Positions 2,018 through 62,889 of a stretch of 64,000 bases of DNA are shown here, piece by piece (position 1 is the first letter of the stretch; every line of letters begins with the position of its first letter). Below the pieces are notes generated by a model that saw only the letters and a list, made by a program, of their open reading frames with translations, made no database searches and was not told the DNA's origin. Where the stretch lies: positions 64,001 to 128,000 of the forward strand of contig SCQK01000014.1 in NCBI GenBank assembly GCA_004321885.1, given 5' to 3'. The stretch comes from Patescibacteria group bacterium (GTDB lineage: Bacteria; Patescibacteriota; Patescibacteriia; Magasanikbacterales; GWA2-37-8). Position numbers and translations under genes: made by a program.

Positions 2018-2035
2018 GTCAATATTTGTTACGAG

Positions 2036-2110
2036 TCGGGCTGGCGGGACTTGAACCCGCGGCCTCATGGTCCCGAACCATGCGCGCTACCAACTGCGCT
2101 ACAGCCCGAA
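2036..2110 (-). tRNA. tRNA-Pro(CGG)
   Basis: Manual cloverleaf on the minus strand: acceptor CGGGCUG/CAGCCCG, D-arm GCGC-AGUUGGUA-GCGC, anticodon stem CAUGG/CCAUG, loop UUCGGGA (anticodon CGG), T-arm GCGGG-UUCAAGU-CCCGC, discriminator A. Confidence 0.85.
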
Positions 2111-2394: not shown

Positions 2395-2462
2395 TTAATA
2401 GAACCCGCGGCCTCCCCGACGTACCGTCGGGGCGCGCTACCAACTGCGCTACAGCCCGATTG
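2395..2462 (-). pseudogene. truncated/degenerate tRNA-Pro-like 5' copy (acceptor 5' strand, D-arm, aberrant anticodon hairpin, variable loop and T-stem 5' strand only)
   Basis: The minus strand reads CGGGCUGUAGCGCAGUUGGUAGCGCGC, identical to tRNA-Pro positions 1-26. Then comes CCCGACGGUACGUCGGGG, a hairpin that is not a valid anticodon arm. AGGCCGCGGGUUC follows and matches the variable loop and T-stem. The T-loop 3' half and the acceptor 3' strand are absent. Confidence 0.6.
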
Positions 2463-2656: not shown

Positions 2657-3688
2657 ATGAACATAGAATCATATTTCAAGGAAGCCATAAAACAGGACGC
2701 GTCGGATTTGCATTTGGTGGGCGGGGAACTGCCGCGCCTGCGCGTGGAAGGCGAGCTCAAAGAGCTTTCCGACAAGCCGCTGAATAATAAAGAACTGGAG
2801 ACCGCGATTTACACTCTCATCTCCAAAGCCCAGCAAGATAGGTATGAGGAAGACAAGGAACTGGACTTTAGCTATTCCGTGGACCAGACCCGCTTCCGCG
2901 TGAACTTGCACCAGCAGGAAGAAAACATCGGCCTGGCCGCCCGCCTGATTCCCAAAACCATTCCCAAACCAGAAGACTTGCACTTTGAACCAACGCTCTC
3001 CGAACTCACCAAACTGATGGACGGTTTGATACTGGTCACCGGTCCCACGGGTTGCGGCAAATCCACCACCATTGCCAGCCTGATTGAAGAGATAAACAAA
3101 AGCCGCCAGGCGCACATTGTGACCGTGGAAGACCCGATAGAATTTTTGTTTGAAGATAAAAAAAGTTTGATAGAACAGCGCGAGGTGGGCACGGACACGA
3201 AATCGTTTGCCAACGCCCTGAAGTATGTGCTGCGCCAGGACCCGAACGTGATATTCGTGGGCGAAATGCGCGACCCCGAGACAATTTCCACGGTGCTGAC
3301 CGCGGCCGAAACCGGCCACCTGGTTTTTTCTACCCTGCACACGCCCAGCGCGGCCGAGGCCGTGGAGCGCATTGTGGACGTGTTTGAGGGCGGCCGGCAA
3401 AAACAGGTTTTGATTCAGCTGTCGTCGGTACTGCGGGCCGTGGTGGCCCAGCAATTACTGCCGGCCAAAGACGGCGGCCGCGTGCCGGCGCGCGAGATTT
3501 TGATAAACAATTCGGCCGTTTCCAACCTCATCCGCGAAAACAATATCAACCAGATAAAATCTTCCATCCAAACCGGCGCCAAAGACGGCATGGTGACCAT
3601 GGAAAATTCCATCAAGCAATTGCTGAAAGAGGGCTGGATTACCGAGGATACAGCCGAGAAAAGAGCGGGCAAGGCGCGGAGGGTGTAA
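2657..3688 (+). CDS. pilT: type IV pilus twitching-motility ATPase PilT
   Basis: Walker A GPTGCGKSTT. PilT/PilU family motifs VEDPIEF and the His box LVFSTLHT are present. About 343 aa from the internal ATG at 2657; the upstream ORF extension is repeat-encoded. Confidence 0.85.
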   Translation: MNIESYFKEAIKQDASDLHLVGGELPRLRVEGELKELSDKPLNNKELETAIYTLISKAQQDRYEEDKELDFSYSVDQTRFRVNLHQQEENIGLAARLIPKTIPKPEDLHFEPTLSELTKLMDGLILVTGPTGCGKSTTIASLIEEINKSRQAHIVTVEDPIEFLFEDKKSLIEQREVGTDTKSFANALKYVLRQDPNVIFVGEMRDPETISTVLTAAETGHLVFSTLHTPSAAEAVERIVDVFEGGRQKQVLIQLSSVLRAVVAQQLLPAKDGGRVPAREILINNSAVSNLIRENNINQIKSSIQTGAKDGMVTMENSIKQLLKEGWITEDTAEKRAGKARRV

Positions 3689-26594: not shown

Positions 26595-26635
26595 TTGGAG
26601 CGGGATACGAGAATCGAACTCGCATCTCTTGCTTG

Positions 26636-26748
26636 CCCCCACACCAATAATATTGAGCGGACGATGGGAATCGAACCCACGCCTCAACCTTGGGAAGGTC
26701 GCATACTACCATTATACTACGCCCGCGTATCGCACTATTGGTGTGGGG
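26636..26748 (-). mobile_element. palindromic-repeat-bounded insertion carrying a complete tRNA-Gly(CCC), flanked by 5-bp direct repeat CAAGC
   Basis: Terminal inverted repeats GCCCCCACACCAATA / TATTGGTGTGGGGGC (family B). CAAGC is present on both flanks (26631..26635 and 26749..26753). Confidence 0.55.
26656..26726 (-). tRNA. tRNA-Gly(CCC) (inner, intact)
   Basis: Acceptor GCGGGCG/CGUCCGC, anticodon stem CGACC/GGUUG with loop UUCCCAA, T-arm GUGGG-UUCGAUU-CCCAU, discriminator U. Confidence 0.85.
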
Positions 26749-26792
26749 GCTTGGGAAGCAAGCATACTGCCACTGTACTAATCCCGCGATTG

Positions 26793-41695: not shown

Positions 41696-41701
41696 AAATT
41701 A

Positions 41702-41736
41702 TTGTCATTCCGGTCGCCTGCGGCGGCCGGAATCCA
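41702..41736. repeat. family-D palindromic element (TGTCATTCCGGTCGCCTGCGGCGGCCGGAATCCAG)
   Basis: Near-identical inverted copy at 59098..59132. Confidence 0.7.
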
Positions 41737-41861
41737 GTTAATTAGCTCATTCTATCTTAACAGATTATAATTTTTTGTCCATAATTGACATTTTCGCTAT
41801 TTTTTTCTATAATAGTTGTCATTCCGGACTTGATCCGGAATCCAGCTCCTTTGAAAATAAA

Positions 41862-41905
41862 TTCCGGGGTAGCGCTCCGCCAGCCGGCGGAGGTAGCGCA
41901 GTTGG
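41862..41905 (+). pseudogene. truncated tRNA-Asn-like 5' fragment with 17-nt hairpin insertion
   Basis: UCCGGGGUAGCGC equals tRNA-Asn positions 1-13. Then the hairpin UCCGCCAGCCGGCGGAG. Then GUAGCGCAG, which matches tRNA-Asn 17-25, before the sequence diverges into the GIY-YIG ORF. Confidence 0.5.
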
Positions 41906-42156
41906 CTGTGTATACTGTTTACGCTATTTACAATCAAAAAAACGATAAAATTTATATTGGACAAACAAAAGACATGGCCGAACGATTAAGGTTGCATAAT
42001 GAAAAAATCCTTCTTGGTTATACTTATAGATTTGATGGAAATTGGAAATTAATTTATAGTGTACAGATCGAGAATAGACAAAAAGCTTTACAAAGAGAGA
42101 GACAACTTAAAAGTTTTAGAGGCAGAGAATTTATAAAACAATTTATTCCGGGGTAG
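41902..42156 (+). CDS. small GIY-YIG nuclease family protein (COG2827/YhbQ-like), TTG/GTG start
   Basis: VYTVYAIYNQKNDKIYIGQTKDMAERLRLHNE (GIY-YIG..R..HN) and a downstream Glu (RERQLK). GGAGGT Shine-Dalgarno sits 7 nt before the TTG at 41902. The stop TAG lies inside the first 10 nt of tRNA-Asn. Confidence 0.65.
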   Translation: MAVYTVYAIYNQKNDKIYIGQTKDMAERLRLHNEKILLGYTYRFDGNWKLIYSVQIENRQKALQRERQLKSFRGREFIKQFIPG

Positions 42157-42218
42157 CGCAGCGGTAGCGCAGAGGACTGTTAATCCTTTGGTCGTGGGTT
42201 CGAATCCCACCCCCGGAG
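42147..42218 (+). tRNA. tRNA-Asn(GUU)
   Basis: Acceptor UCCGGGG/CCCCGGA, D-arm GCGC-AGCGGUA-GCGC, anticodon stem GAGGA/UCCUU with loop CUGUUAA, T-arm GUGGG-UUCGAAU-CCCAC, discriminator G. Confidence 0.85.
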
Positions 42219-42220
42219 CA

Positions 42221-42350
42221 AAAACAAAAATACTGGTAATATCCAGTATTTTTGCTTTTGCTCGGAATACACGAAAAAATACGAACGGATTTGGGCGAAT
42301 TTTAGGGCGCGGGCGAAATTCCCTCCCCACACCCCTTCCTTTCGCCCGCG
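42221..42350. repeat. left ~130-bp inverted repeat (includes tRNA terminator hairpin AAAAATACTGGTAATATCCAGTATTTTT)
   Basis: About 88% identical to the reverse complement of 47421..47550. Confidence 0.7.
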
Positions 42351-42528
42351 AAGCGAAACGGGGGCTCTGGTGGACAAAAACTGCCAAAGAACCCGTAAAA
42401 AATGTCGGCCGAACTTTATGTTGGCCAAAAGCAAACTTTTCTCTTTGATATTGAATTACGATTGTTAAAGTGATATAATCAAGTCAATGAGCGTCCCATT
42501 CTTGCTATCTTATGTATACTATCATACT

Positions 42529-42735
42529 ATGGAAGAAAAGAAAACAATCGGCGAAAAAATAAAAAAATGGAGAGCGAAGAAAGATTTGACACAAGACGCC
42601 TTGGCAAAAAAGGCGGATATTCCATATAGCACGATTGCTAAAATTGAATCAGATGTTATTACGAGGCCAACAATACAGACAGTGCAAAAGCTGGCCGTTG
42701 GTTTGGGTATAACACTTGATGAATTATTAAAATAG
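42529..42735 (+). CDS. XRE-family HTH transcriptional regulator (candidate RM controller C-protein)
   Basis: KIKKWRAKKDLTQDALAKKADIPYSTIAKIE is an HTH_XRE. 68 aa. Directly upstream of the MTase. Confidence 0.7.
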   Translation: MEEKKTIGEKIKKWRAKKDLTQDALAKKADIPYSTIAKIESDVITRPTIQTVQKLAVGLGITLDELLK

Positions 42736-42736
42736 T

Positions 42737-43618
42737 ATGGTTAAAGGTCACAAAGTGAAAAATGAAAAAATCGATAAAAAAATAGCTTTTGGTTGGTATG
42801 GCGGTAAGTTTAGTCATCTTGACTGGCTTTTGCCGCTGTTGCCGGAAACCGATCATTTTTGTGAGCCGTTTGGTGGCTCTGCTGCCGTTATCATAAACAG
42901 AAATCCTTCTTTAATCGAAACATATAATGATTTAGATGGCGAGGTAGTTAATTTCTTCAGAGTATTAAGGGAACATCCTAACGATCTTATAAGACAAATT
43001 GGGCTTACTCCATTTTCGAGGGAAGAATTCAAATATGCTATTGAACACGAAGATGATAAAAATCTTTCAGATATTGAGAGGGCTAGGTCTTTTTTTATCC
43101 GCGCAAGGCAGGTTAGGACTGGACTTGCTCAAAAAGCTACTTCTGGTAGATGGGCAAATTGTAAATTAACTTCCAGAGCCGGAATGTCAGGTGCGGTCTC
43201 GAGGTGGTTGGGAAGTGTTGACGGGCTAACAGAGATTGCGGAAAGGCTTTTACGAATACAAATTGAAAATGCTCCTGCAATTGAAGTTGTAAGGCGATAT
43301 GATAGCCCACAGACCTTATTTTACTGTGATCCTCCGTATACACATGATTCTCGAGGTGATATAAATGCCTATAAATTTGAAATGGACAGGGATGCGCATG
43401 TCGAACTGGCCGAAACACTAAAACAGGTTAAGGGGTTAGTCGCTATATCGGGTTACGACTCTCCCCTAATGAACGAGCTGTATCAAGGATGGAAAAAAAT
43501 CGCTGGGCCAGTAAAAAATGCAAATTCTATACAACAACCTAGACAAGAAATTTTATGGGTTAATTATAATATTAATGATAAATCTTTATGGAAAAAGCAG
43601 CAAAGATCCTTGATATAA
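42737..43618 (+). CDS. DNA adenine methyltransferase, Dam/D12-class (N6-adenine)
   Basis: Motif I FCEPFGGSAAV. Motif IV FYCDPPYT (DPPY). Confidence 0.85.
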   Translation: MVKGHKVKNEKIDKKIAFGWYGGKFSHLDWLLPLLPETDHFCEPFGGSAAVIINRNPSLIETYNDLDGEVVNFFRVLREHPNDLIRQIGLTPFSREEFKYAIEHEDDKNLSDIERARSFFIRARQVRTGLAQKATSGRWANCKLTSRAGMSGAVSRWLGSVDGLTEIAERLLRIQIENAPAIEVVRRYDSPQTLFYCDPPYTHDSRGDINAYKFEMDRDAHVELAETLKQVKGLVAISGYDSPLMNELYQGWKKIAGPVKNANSIQQPRQEILWVNYNINDKSLWKKQQRSLI

Positions 43619-44709
43619 TTTTGAAAAAAACTAATGGGCATCTAGAAAAACCTTTTATAAAAAATAGGGAGATTTTGCGGAAAATAGAATTTATTTCTCA
43701 TAATATTCAAAATCGAGCCGGCGTCCGCCTTATTATGTCTTGCTTACTGGCGAAACTTGACGATCCAAAAGTTGATGTAAGAAAACCTTATACGGAGATT
43801 GGCAGTCGTGATAGTTTTTCGGGCAGAACATATGACGAGGCCTATGTCGGCAGTTTTATCACTAAACATCACTTGCCGTGTAATCCAACAACAGCGTTTT
43901 TGACGCCAGCTCTACGTAATAGAAATATTGTACTTACGCCAAAAGTAAATTTAGTCGGCAGGCCACCAGAAATTTATCAATACGTTCTCGACCTCCTAGA
44001 ATTAGTATTTAAAGGATTTCTTGCCCCAGCCATTCTGCTTGCGGAAATAATGCGACAACTTGTTCTTTTACGAGATGAAAATCAAAAACGTATAAAATCT
44101 TTGTTAAAGAATCTCGGGAAAAATGGTAGTGTGCCTCTTTCGGGTGAAGACATAATAAAACTTATTGAGCAACATTTAAATTGCAAAGGAGCCAGCAGAC
44201 TTCCCGTACTTATCGTGGCCGCTGCTTACAACACTATTGGAAATTTCATCCAAGAAAAAGTATTACCTATCTTTTCTCACAATTCTGCAGATAAACAAAC
44301 TGGTGCGCTCGGCGATATACAAATTACGTTAATTAATGACGAGAATGTAGTAACTAGTTATGAGATGAAGATGAAGAAGGTCACAAAGGACGACATTGAT
44401 ATCGCTCTGCAAAAAATTTCGGGAGTTAAGTACAAAATAGATAATTATATTTTTATAACGACGGATATAATAGATGATTCGGTAAAAGAATATGCGAAAT
44501 CACTTTATGAGCAAACCGGCGGAATAGAGATAGTTGTCTTAGATTGTATTAGTTTTCTTAGGCATTTTATTCATTTATTCCACCGCTTCAGATTGCCATA
44601 TCTTGAAGAGTATCAAAAGTTGGTGATGGGTGAAGCAGACAGCGCGGTCAGTCAGCCCCTTAAAGAGGCATTTCTTGCTCTTCGACAGGCAACAGAAAGC
44701 GCGAATTAA
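43588..44709 (+). CDS. putative type II restriction endonuclease (PD-(D/E)xK-like)
   Basis: Overlaps the MTase 3' end. Candidate GD...(17 aa)...EMK motif (ALGDIQITLINDENVVTSYEMKMK). Confidence 0.45.
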   Translation: MEKAAKILDIILKKTNGHLEKPFIKNREILRKIEFISHNIQNRAGVRLIMSCLLAKLDDPKVDVRKPYTEIGSRDSFSGRTYDEAYVGSFITKHHLPCNPTTAFLTPALRNRNIVLTPKVNLVGRPPEIYQYVLDLLELVFKGFLAPAILLAEIMRQLVLLRDENQKRIKSLLKNLGKNGSVPLSGEDIIKLIEQHLNCKGASRLPVLIVAAAYNTIGNFIQEKVLPIFSHNSADKQTGALGDIQITLINDENVVTSYEMKMKKVTKDDIDIALQKISGVKYKIDNYIFITTDIIDDSVKEYAKSLYEQTGGIEIVVLDCISFLRHFIHLFHRFRLPYLEEYQKLVMGEADSAVSQPLKEAFLALRQATESAN

Positions 44710-54490: not shown

Positions 54491-55093
54491 ATGGTAAATA
54501 TGGTAAAATTGTTGGCGATGGATTCCGGCTCGGGGGCCGGAATGACACGACTGGTTATGTTTGAAAAAATTGTTCAGTTGGATAAATATCTAAATCAGGA
54601 GTTCGTCGGTTCCGGCGGAAAATTTTTGCAGGGATTGGGAATTTTTATTGATTCGGCTTCGGGCATGGTTGTTTTTGGCGTCATCGGCCTAATCGCGGCG
54701 CTGTATTTTTGCAAAACAAAAAAATGGCGCGAGCTGGCCTTGTTTTTCGCGGCCGGGGCCGGCGCGGTTTTTTGGGAATTATTTTTGAAATGGGTTTTTG
54801 GCCGGCCGCGCCCGGGCGCGCTGTCGCCGACCGATGGTTTTAGTTTCCCCAGCGGGCACGCGACTGTTTCCCTGGCTGTCTTTGGCGCTATAATATATTT
54901 GTTTGCTCCGCGCATAAAAAATAAAAATTGGCGCAAGATTTTTATCGGCGCTTGCGCTCTGTTTATTCTTCTCATCGGCGTCAGCCGCGTGTATCTGGGG
55001 GTGCATTGGTTTAGCGATGTAGTGGCCGGCTTTGCTCTCGGTTTAGTTTGGCTTTGGCTGGTAATTTTTGGCTTCAAACGATTTTGGCGATAG
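54491..55093 (+). CDS. PAP2-family phosphatase (undecaprenyl-diphosphatase / phosphatidic acid phosphatase type 2)
   Basis: PAP2 motifs KWVFGRPRP, PSGHAT, SRVYLGVHWFSDVVAG. Confidence 0.75.
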   Translation: MVNMVKLLAMDSGSGAGMTRLVMFEKIVQLDKYLNQEFVGSGGKFLQGLGIFIDSASGMVVFGVIGLIAALYFCKTKKWRELALFFAAGAGAVFWELFLKWVFGRPRPGALSPTDGFSFPSGHATVSLAVFGAIIYLFAPRIKNKNWRKIFIGACALFILLIGVSRVYLGVHWFSDVVAGFALGLVWLWLVIFGFKRFWR

Positions 55094-58708: not shown

Positions 58709-58982
58709 AGAAAAGCGATTACCTGTAATATATAGATGGTGGGCGCGGAGCGGCGGAAAAAATGTTCTACAACTTTTTTTCATAGGTTCGCCAATATCTG
58801 TTTGGCCCTTGGGTCAAACGTGCGGCTTACCACCTACTATCACGGGACACGTGACGCCGCTTGCGCGCTTAACCCTTTTTTGATTTTACAGTAAAACTGA
58901 AAAAAAGCAACGGGTTATACTGCGTATAGCCCGTTCTCGCTCGGAAACGCAAAATTAAAATTTTGCGTTTCGCTCGCTCGAA

Positions 58983-59055
58983 CGGGCTATAGCGAAGTTG
59001 GTATCGCGCATGCATGGGGTGCATGAGACCGTGGGTTCAAGTCCCACTAGCCCGA
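58983..59055 (+). tRNA. tRNA-Pro(GGG)
   Basis: Acceptor CGGGCUA/UAGCCCG, D-arm GCG-AAGUUGGUA-UCGC, anticodon stem CAUGC/GCAUG with loop AUGGGGU, T-arm GUGGG-UUCAAGU-CCCAC, discriminator A. Confidence 0.8.
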
Positions 59056-59097: not shown

Positions 59098-59132
59098 CTG
59101 GATTCCGGTCGCCTGCGACGACCGGAATGACA
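59098..59132. repeat. family-D palindromic element (inverted orientation)
   Basis: CTGGATTCCGGTCGCCTGCGACGACCGGAATGACA. Confidence 0.7.
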
Positions 59133-62861: not shown

Positions 62862-62889
62862 TGTCATTCCCGCGAAAGCGGGAATCCAG
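62862..62889. repeat. family-D palindromic element (TGTCATTCCCGCGAAAGCGGGAATCCAG)
   Basis: Minimal form of family D. Intergenic. Confidence 0.7.

Follow-up and report, generated by a model that had tools for sequence, protein, structure and literature searches.

Results

A small GIY-YIG gene lies between a partial and a complete copy of tRNA-Asn

We analysed a stretch of 64,000 nucleotides (nt) from a Patescibacteria group bacterium (GenBank assembly GCA_004321885.1, contig SCQK01000014.1, positions 64,001 to 128,000 of the forward strand), here called the window and numbered from its first letter, and centred the analysis on its tRNA-Asn(GUU) gene. This gene is intact according to both ARAGORN and the covariance models of Rfam (73.4 bits). 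It directly follows a short open reading frame (ORF) for a GIY-YIG nuclease, which is itself preceded by a copy of the tRNA-Asn 5' part, the stub, into which a palindrome is set (Table 1). An initial annotation, made from the letters alone, had described a tRNA-Asn remnant, a hairpin, a GIY-YIG frame with its stop codon inside the tRNA and a parallel case at a tRNA-Pro gene of the same window, and each of these elements is present, although some of their boundaries and roles have to be revised.

The 13-mer TCCGGGGTAGCGC, which is identical to positions 1-13 of the tRNA, occurs exactly twice in the 64 kb, at 41863-41875 and at 42147-42159, whereas about 0.03 matches are expected by chance. The repeat begins at 41863 and not, as first annotated, at 41862, this base being the T at position -1. 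Next comes the perfect palindrome TCCGCCAGCCGGCGGA, of 16 nt rather than 17, which has no other close match in the window, and then GGTAGCGCAG, which equals tRNA-Asn positions 18-27. The upstream copy thus comprises positions 1-27 with the D-loop triplet AGC exchanged for 16 nt, and the D-loop continuation that had been placed at positions 17-25 runs to position 27 or beyond. The following bases, TTGGCTGT, resemble the anticodon stem and loop of another tRNA-Asn allele, that of survey locus L070 (L numbers denote individual loci of the survey described below), so that GGTAGCGCAGTTGGCTGT (41892-41909) matches the tRNA-Asn of L070 over 18 nt but the local tRNA-Asn over only 10 nt. At the other end of the unit, the last codons of the ORF, ATT CCG GGG, and its stop codon TAG (42154-42156) are at the same time positions 1-10 of the intact tRNA, the stop being U8-A9-G10.

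A perfect consensus promoter upstream of the stub is probably that of the resident tRNA-Asn gene and would now drive stub, ORF and tRNA together. Because this promoter and a terminator-like hairpin flank the three elements, they look like one transcription unit.

The 82-amino-acid (aa) ORF is the only one between the two copies of the tRNA 5' part, which lie about 285 nt apart, and in an Rfam scan of 41700-42300 (E up to 1) the tRNA was the sole match, so that the unit is not a group I intron carrying an endonuclease ORF. Partial tRNA duplications are a classic signature of integrative elements, and the tRNA is closely followed by two genes resembling a restriction-modification pair, which together could suggest an attL/attR-type scar of an integrase-mediated island with the GIY-YIG gene as incidental cargo. 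However, the duplicated part is the 5' and not the 3' part of the tRNA, no integrase is encoded between the repeats, and a unit of 290 nt recurs in about 90 independent loci (see below). We regard this explanation as highly improbable and effectively refuted by the anatomy. Still less credible is a chance similarity or an assembly artefact, which nothing beyond the shortness of the repeat would favour: the low expectation for the 13-mer speaks against it, as does the recurrence of the architecture in independent assemblies from NCBI, JGI, ENA and Logan.

Table 1. Features of the two GIY-YIG loci in the window, with positions counted from its first letter
Feature	Position	Strand	Basis or remark
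Consensus sigma-70-type promoter, TTGACA-17-TATAAT, 12/12	41785..41813	+	Pattern match; upstream of stub
Leader hairpin, CATTCCSG...CSGGAATC repeat type	41820..41842	+	
Stub part A, exact tRNA-Asn 1-13 (acceptor 5' strand, U8, A9, D-stem 5' strand)	41863..41875	+	
Palindrome TCCGCC-AGCC-GGCGGA, subfamily-specific	41876..41891	+	Replaces D-loop nucleotides 14-16/17 (AGC)
Stub part B, GGTAGCGCAG then TTGGCTGT	41892..41909	+	Both candidate start codons overlapped
GIY-YIG nuclease ORF, starting at GTG 41908 (82 aa) or TTG 41902 (84 aa)	41908..42156	+	
Intact tRNA-Asn(GUU)	42147..42219	+	ARAGORN, Rfam
Intrinsic-terminator-like hairpin then T-run, end of putative transcription unit	42225..42254	+	Pattern match
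Sister stub: tRNA-Pro(CGG) 1-27, hairpin CCCCGACGGTACGTCGGGG (2432-2414) replacing anticodon arm, then 44-56	2401..2458	-	
Sister GIY-YIG ORF, 88 aa, own stop TAA	2118..2384	-	
Sister intact tRNA-Pro(CGG), 9 nt past ORF stop	2035..2108	-	ARAGORN, Rfam

The encoded protein consists of little more than a GIY-YIG domain

The Asn-side and Pro-side proteins match PF01541 with 58.8 and 57.3 bits, far above the cut-off of 22.6 bits, which confirms the GIY-YIG assignment, and with 27% identity and the same architecture they are distant relatives. The domain spans residues 4-73 of proteins that are 82-88 aa long, without room for a separate DNA-binding domain. Six residues (Y7, Y18, G20, R28, H32 and E66, including the tyrosines of GIY and YIG) are invariant in 31 sequences, and the N-terminal motifs align with Y6, Y17 and R27 of I-TevI; a counterpart of the C-terminal Asn of the GIY-YIG motif was not identified in this comparison. 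As judged from the aligned sequences, the catalytic motif is intact and under purifying selection. The closest solved structures by profile are the UPF0213 proteins EF2693 (PDB 1ywl) and BH0048 (PDB 1zg2) and the catalytic domain of I-TevI, all of them weak matches (E about 1e-3).

The start codon first proposed, TTG 41902, does lie 7 nt downstream of a GGAGGT (41889-41894), as annotated, but is probably not the true one. The family consensus starts with MYxVYAIYN and the database entry for the window protein, P0001, is 82 aa long, which therefore indicates GTG 41908 as the start. We also rejected GGAGGT as a Shine-Dalgarno feature of the family: it is present in nearly all relatives, where it marks the junction between the conserved palindrome (GGCGGA) and the GGT of the D-loop and stands 20-45 nt from most start codons. 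A related observation concerns database records, in which gene callers have run some ORFs upstream through stub and palindrome (P0104, P0119 and others in alignment A1), creating false N-terminal peptides such as ALRQLAEV (P0104) or SSLYSEGR.

The same arrangement recurs at tRNA-Asn genes across the Candidate Phyla Radiation

A protein search brought up 182 relatives with a length of about 82 aa, recorded simply as GIY-YIG proteins of Patescibacteria or the Candidate Phyla Radiation (CPR), and we surveyed 84 Asn-type loci (4 from genomes and 80 from metagenomes). In 70 of the 84, ARAGORN called a tRNA on the same strand right after the ORF, namely Asn(GUU) in 66 cases, Lys(UUU) in three and Lys(CUU) in one. 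The 10-nt overlap between ORF and tRNA is identical to that of the window in 54/84 loci, and TCCGCC-N4-GGCGGA lies 28-62 nt upstream of the ORF in about 68/84. Nearly all proteins end in I-P-x-stop, as the ORFs enter a tRNA that starts with UCC and use its U8-A9-G10 as stop codon. Most loci that lack a called tRNA carry a tRNA-Asn interrupted after the CTGT of the anticodon loop, and in the three tested the interruption is a group I intron (L020 1703-1969, L054 1731-1969 and L072 1762-1961; Rfam, 56-88 bits). A tRNA-Asn(GUU) split in the anticodon loop and missed by ARAGORN was also seen in L003, L009, L044, L055 and L067, with the insert of L003 encoding an HNH-type endonuclease.

Upstream of the ORF the loci share a common plan, in which native flanking sequence is followed by tRNA positions 1-13/14, the palindrome, GGTAGAGC with 0-9 further tRNA nucleotides, a short AT-rich spacer and the start codon. 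This unit of about 290 nt recurs in about 90 to a hundred CPR/Patescibacteria loci. Although the acceptor stems differ widely between loci, the stub begins with the same 9 nt as the local tRNA in 47 of the 55 distinct loci, while in L014, L051, L053 and L081 the stub is unlike the intact tRNA. We considered whether the duplication reaches into the upstream flank or the 3' end of the ORF and rejected this, as the 10 nt before the stub and before the intact tRNA agree in 4.96 of 10 positions within loci compared with 4.5 of 10 between loci; L004 is the exception, with 13 nt of upstream flank common to stub and intact tRNA.

When 1.84 billion cluster representatives were searched with a profile of the Asn-type clade, 827 matched at E <= 1e-10 and 10,582 matched at E <= 1e-3. 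A scan of viral contigs gave no true relatives, only matches of the N-terminal motifs to ordinary phage GIY-YIG genes.

A conserved palindrome replaces three nucleotides of the target

The palindrome had been listed as one piece of the remnant, yet it proved to be conserved more strongly than anything else in the unit that is non-coding. Its arms (TCCGCC/GGCGGA, 6+6 nt) are identical for 64 of 74 distinct ORFs, with only the central 4 nt variable, whereas the ORFs themselves have a mean DNA identity of 63% and their most conserved 16-nt window a mean column conservation of just 0.87. Two proteins that carry KSGNGR instead of KS[FY]RGR, a Saccharibacteria-like variant, go together with a symmetrically compensated palindrome (...GCTGnnCAGC...), which hints at cognate recognition of the palindrome by the protein.

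Among 35 distinct clean junctions, the target lost exactly 3 nt in 31. The replaced triplets (AGC 9, AAT 8, AGT 6, AAC 3, GTT 2, ATC 2, GTG 1) mostly occupy tRNA positions 14-16, in three cases positions 9-11. Nested palindromes are frequent, a second copy sitting in the centre of the first, again at a cost of 3 nt (pattern TCCGCC[TCCGCCAGTTGGCGGA]TGGCGGA and variants), and L028 possibly holds a third layer.

Two other accounts of the palindrome were rejected. The first, that its centre is the D-loop triplet retained between two inserted arms, fails as the centre ignores the local D-loop (an AGC centre in an AAT target in L012, L023 and L033). The second, that it is a dispersed repeat of the repetitive extragenic palindromic (REP) type, does not fit its single close copy in the 64-kb window and its occurrence almost only beside its ORF; extra copies within loci mostly belong to further tRNA stubs or are apparently chance in-frame occurrences.

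A sister subfamily occupies tRNA-Pro, tRNA-His and tRNA-Val genes

The second locus of the window has the layout first described for it (Table 1), with a stub that ends by a break in the T-loop, at 2401. A search with its protein found 65 relatives, and seven of these were looked up, giving 10 loci at 8 distinct places; one relative is annotated as belonging to an Omnitrophica genome. In all Pro-type loci examined, a tRNA follows the ORF (Pro(CGG), Pro(GGG) twice, His, Val(GAC), and Val(UAC) twice), so that 9 of 9 distinct loci are tRNA-adjacent when the window copy is counted. Every stub holds one or more YCCGAC-N5-GTCGGR hairpins, which substitute for the anticodon arm in tRNA-Pro loci and sit in the D-loop in His and Val loci. 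The ORF stop is again a TAG at tRNA positions 8-10 in L087, L090, L092 and L093. An ORF 3' end is found upstream of the stub in L089 and is absent in L088, which encodes the same protein. In L092 (about 1335-1600), moreover, a full-length second tRNA-Val stands past the intact tRNA, its D-loop being occupied by over 150 nt of two types of nested hairpin.

The family of tRNA-targeting GIY-YIG elements that the initial annotation had proposed from its two examples is thus borne out at Asn, Lys, Pro, His and Val tRNAs, with 'targeting' in the sense of cleavage of tRNA gene DNA being our reading of this distribution. The two outcomes that the annotation had named as counter-evidence did not occur, the stub being identical to the tRNA 5' half and the homologues lying almost always next to a tRNA. 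One relative, however, sits at a protein-coding gene (see below).

Copies are stacked, apparently change their target and reach leuS

Four loci (L003, L015, L032 and L067) carry a further stub and palindrome between ORF and tRNA, as tandem stubs. L082 (1740-1839) holds two cassettes, as the tRNA behind the first, until then intact, has received another one that differs from it in palindrome (CCTGCCTGCCGGCAGGCAGG) and in GIY-YIG ORF. A third type of palindrome, CCTGCCTGCC/GGCAGGCAGG, goes with a different GIY-YIG ORF starting MYYVYAI (L082) and was also seen within the stub of L011, at about 1400-1460. As for changes of target, the nearest neighbours of each of the four Lys-linked proteins are Asn-linked proteins and not one another, which therefore indicates independent changes of target; unoccupied Lys and Pro(GGG) tRNAs exist in the window.

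One further target is leuS. In L064 (1438-1790), an Asn-type protein and palindrome are found at the 5' end of this gene in the order leuS codons 1-10, palindrome in frame (IRQLAE), a few leuS-like codons, GIY-YIG domain and intact leuS, the ATG of the latter overlapping the GIY-YIG stop codon (ATGA). The replaced segment AATGGCAACGTATT contains AATGGCA, which is the D-loop sequence of many tRNA-Asn genes. Stub and intact leuS differ at synonymous sites and are therefore not recent copies of each other.

These findings bear on the idea that the arrangement is a domesticated, vertically inherited operon, in which the GIY-YIG protein has a cellular job while stub and hairpin form a regulatory leader that pairs with the tRNA or controls processing or translation. 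Such an operon would account for the near-universal arrangement at tRNA-Asn over many CPR phyla, for the conserved stop codon within the tRNA and for the co-variation of stub and tRNA, which is expected if the acceptor strand of the stub must pair with the 3' strand of the tRNA; the leader in the window is also more stably folded than shuffled sequence (z = -2.8). However, the layout is identical at Lys, Pro, His and Val tRNAs and at the protein gene leuS, and tandem, stacked and nested copies with decayed stubs are hallmarks of repeated insertion. Pairing is moreover not preserved where the stub differs from the tRNA (L014, L051), and the palindrome arms are invariant in sequence instead of co-varying. 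We therefore consider a domesticated operon unlikely.

We give slightly less credence still to a 'cleave and rescue' type of disruption and replacement, whereby palindrome, ORF and a complete replacement tRNA would enter a resident tRNA, leaving the 5' part of the latter upstream and its 3' part downstream, where it would decay as a rule. This would explain an ORF/tRNA junction that is inherited nearly unchanged, as the ORF needs the TAG of the tRNA, and it would also account for the four loci named above in which stub and intact tRNA are unlike, for the second tRNA 3' ends found within 400 nt downstream of the intact tRNA in L001, L039, L068, L070 and L079, and for the hairpin-laden tRNA-Val of L092. 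A tRNA-Gly lying inside another tRNA-Gly between inverted repeats, elsewhere in the window, follows the same logic. Yet 50 of the 57 loci surveyed have no 3' remnant, and the stretch that follows the palindrome mostly agrees with the local tRNA. A cassette carrying tRNA-Asn would, in addition, kill a tRNA-Lys on moving there, whereas at the Lys loci both stub and tRNA are of the Lys type. In L001, two tRNA-Asn 3' ends follow within 3345-3625, each with the palindrome before it and its own terminator after it.

Discussion

First, we propose that these loci represent a family of minimal selfish cassettes, each comprising a GIY-YIG nuclease reduced to its catalytic domain and a subfamily-specific palindrome, that settle on the 5' side of essential genes. 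We assign this reading a probability of roughly 0.6 because related units occupy five tRNA species as well as leuS, because copies are stacked, in tandem or nested, because some stubs carry foreign-looking alleles and because the catalytic motif is conserved. With regard to the alleles, the stub of the window fits the anticodon stem of another lineage's tRNA-Asn better than the local one, and the leuS stub differs synonymously from its gene.

Under this proposal, insertion would leave the 5' part of the resident gene upstream as a promoter-bearing stub in which a few nucleotides are swapped for the palindrome, while the whole gene after the nuclease ORF would let the host keep its tRNA and the nuclease would be transcribed from the strong tRNA promoter. 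The nuclease may cut a motif similar to A-R-Y/GG, which we infer from the mutual resemblance of the D-loop coding sequence, the AATGGCA of leuS and the palindrome centre AGCTGG. Repair of the break could then copy the cassette in from a cassette-bearing template, with the tRNA sequence providing homology as in homing, and a staggered cut with 3-nt 5' overhangs followed by 5' resection would produce the exact loss of 3 nt. The palindrome arms may serve as the recognition site of the protein or may, as an insert moving along with the ORF, disrupt the site. Finally, from the known roles of RNase P and trans-translation, and given that the stop codon lies within the tRNA, RNase P processing would be expected to yield a non-stop mRNA and might thus keep the level of the nuclease low.

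Several observations weigh against this proposal. Mobility is deduced from the distribution across loci rather than from pairs of empty and filled sites in close strains, and the viral contigs scanned, as a potential vehicle for transfer, contained no relatives. The presumed target sequence is still contained in the intact tRNA, so that a simple homing endonuclease would keep cutting the host gene, and an 82-aa protein without a DNA-binding domain is unlike known homing GIY-YIG enzymes. The 16-bp palindrome has been inserted on its own into older palindromes with both arms duplicated, which does not follow from simple break homing or misaligned repair. Simple homing also falls short where a correct stub and a precise +1 junction of ORF and tRNA arise anew at a new tRNA species, and it does not explain the extra tRNA 3' ends that a few loci carry past the intact tRNA.

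A more far-reaching possibility, which we hold only tentatively and with less confidence than the family of selfish cassettes as such, is that the unit of about 290 nt constitutes a new class of minimal autonomous mobile element, whose nuclease would recognise the 16-bp palindrome. Such an element would enter the 5' region of essential genes by a precise exchange of 3 nt for the palindrome, duplicate the 5' end of the target, take over its promoter and leave a whole gene behind, thereby acting as a natural 'cut and restore' drive. If true, the insertion of palindromes, including that of one palindrome into another, would be a DNA transaction undescribed for GIY-YIG enzymes.

Second, comparison with known systems suggests that the cassette is akin both to free-standing nuclease genes of the homing type and to elements directed at tRNA genes, with a considerable probability that its palindrome chemistry sets a new class. 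The free-standing GIY-YIG Seg homing endonucleases of T4-like phages, of which SegB reportedly resides in the tRNA gene cluster of T4, likewise comprise an intron-free GIY-YIG gene beside a conserved gene that is presumed to be cut, are spread by repair of the cut ('intronless homing') and are associated with tRNA genes. In contrast to Seg proteins, which exceed 200 aa and contain DNA-binding modules, the proteins described here are roughly 80-aa catalytic domains and are encoded on the chromosomes of CPR bacteria instead of in T4-like phages; Seg loci also lack the partial duplication of the target, the palindrome and the entry of the ORF into the tRNA, all three of which characterise the new family. 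Stand-alone GIY-YIG proteins of the UPF0213/YhbQ-like type resemble our proteins in size and domain content and are similarly obscure in function, but the profile similarity is weak (E about 1e-3) and, to our knowledge, neither a tRNA linkage nor a palindrome has been described for them.

Genomic islands and prophages that encode a tyrosine integrase use tRNA genes as targets, bring along a replacement tRNA fragment, are kilobases long and duplicate the 3' part of the tRNA. With them the cassette shares insertion in a tRNA gene, restoration of the tRNA and a partial tRNA copy as direct repeat, although it duplicates the 5' part, measures about 290 nt and encodes a nuclease only, with no recombinase gene. 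REP elements with their REP-associated tyrosine transposases (RAYT), as well as palindromic elements derived from IS200/IS605, rely on an HUH Y1 transposase, and REPs are dispersed in hundreds of copies. They too combine a short palindrome with one small nuclease-type gene, insert palindromes into palindromes and apparently prefer hairpin loops as target, yet the enzyme here is GIY-YIG rather than HUH Y1, and the palindrome is found once in the window and nearly always beside its ORF. In rRNA genes of CPR bacteria, small GIY-YIG ORFs have been found in insertions that are neither group I nor group II introns and that are located mostly at the top or base of stem-loops (PMC11270868). Compared by description only, these insertions share with our family the group of organisms and the presence of small GIY-YIG ORFs in genes for structured RNAs; however, the rRNA ORFs lie within the gene and are presumably removed from the RNA, whereas the cassette leaves a 5' stub and a whole, uninterrupted gene. 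Small tRNA-linked GIY-YIG genes with a stub and a palindrome were not described in the full-text literature that we searched, whose coverage excludes most subscription journals, and the cassette apparently represents a widespread, undescribed selfish element.

Third, these results bear on small stand-alone GIY-YIG proteins, which are very numerous and carry no annotation beyond 'GIY-YIG nuclease family protein', and they give the CPR clades a testable genomic context, namely a cassette tied to the 5' end of tRNA genes together with a cognate palindrome. If mobile, the cassettes would rank with the smallest known selfish elements that are self-contained and would show how, in a very small genome, a tRNA gene that is essential and present only once can be occupied without being destroyed. 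For annotation, ORFs that end within tRNAs are real here and not errors, translation of stub and palindrome yields false N-termini, and the conserved palindrome offers a simple marker for locating such units. The enzyme and its site may also prove attractive as a sequence- or structure-specific nuclease of very small size.

Other features of the window

Directly downstream of the tRNA-Asn (42487-44709) are genes for a small helix-turn-helix protein, a DNA methyltransferase-like ORF (DPPY) and a 373-aa ORF, which could form a restriction-modification island.

The hairpin repeat CATTCCSG...CSGGAATC occurs in five copies of the strict pattern, with none expected by chance (41706-41734, 41820-41842, 54521-54544, 59101-59129 and 62865-62886), and in a variant at 2465-2505. 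Two copies sit between promoter region and stub of the two GIY-YIG cassettes, the variant upstream of the tRNA-Pro stub holding another nested hairpin, and one lies just past tRNA-Pro(GGG).

At 26595-26790 on the minus strand, a tRNA-Gly(CCC) (26655-26726) is contained within a second tRNA-Gly(CCC)-like gene, the outer copy consisting of a 5' half GCGGGATTAGTACAGTGGCAGTATGCTTGCTTCCCAAG, an insert in which the 14-bp inverted repeats CCCCCACACCAATA/TATTGGTGTGGGGG surround the intact tRNA, and a 3' half CAAGCAAGAGATGCGAGTTCGATTCTCGTATCCCGCTCCA. The junctions may contain a duplication of CAAG, and the insert looks like a repeat-bounded element that brought a replacement tRNA into the anticodon loop of a paralogue.

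Lastly, the leader of tRNA-Pro(GGG) (58925-58995) contains a 13-nt perfect inverted repeat (GAAACGCAAAATT/AATTTTGCGTTTC) and is complementary to the tRNA's own 5' end (TATAGCCCGTT/AACGGGCTATA), so that the acceptor 5' strand could be sequestered by the leader.

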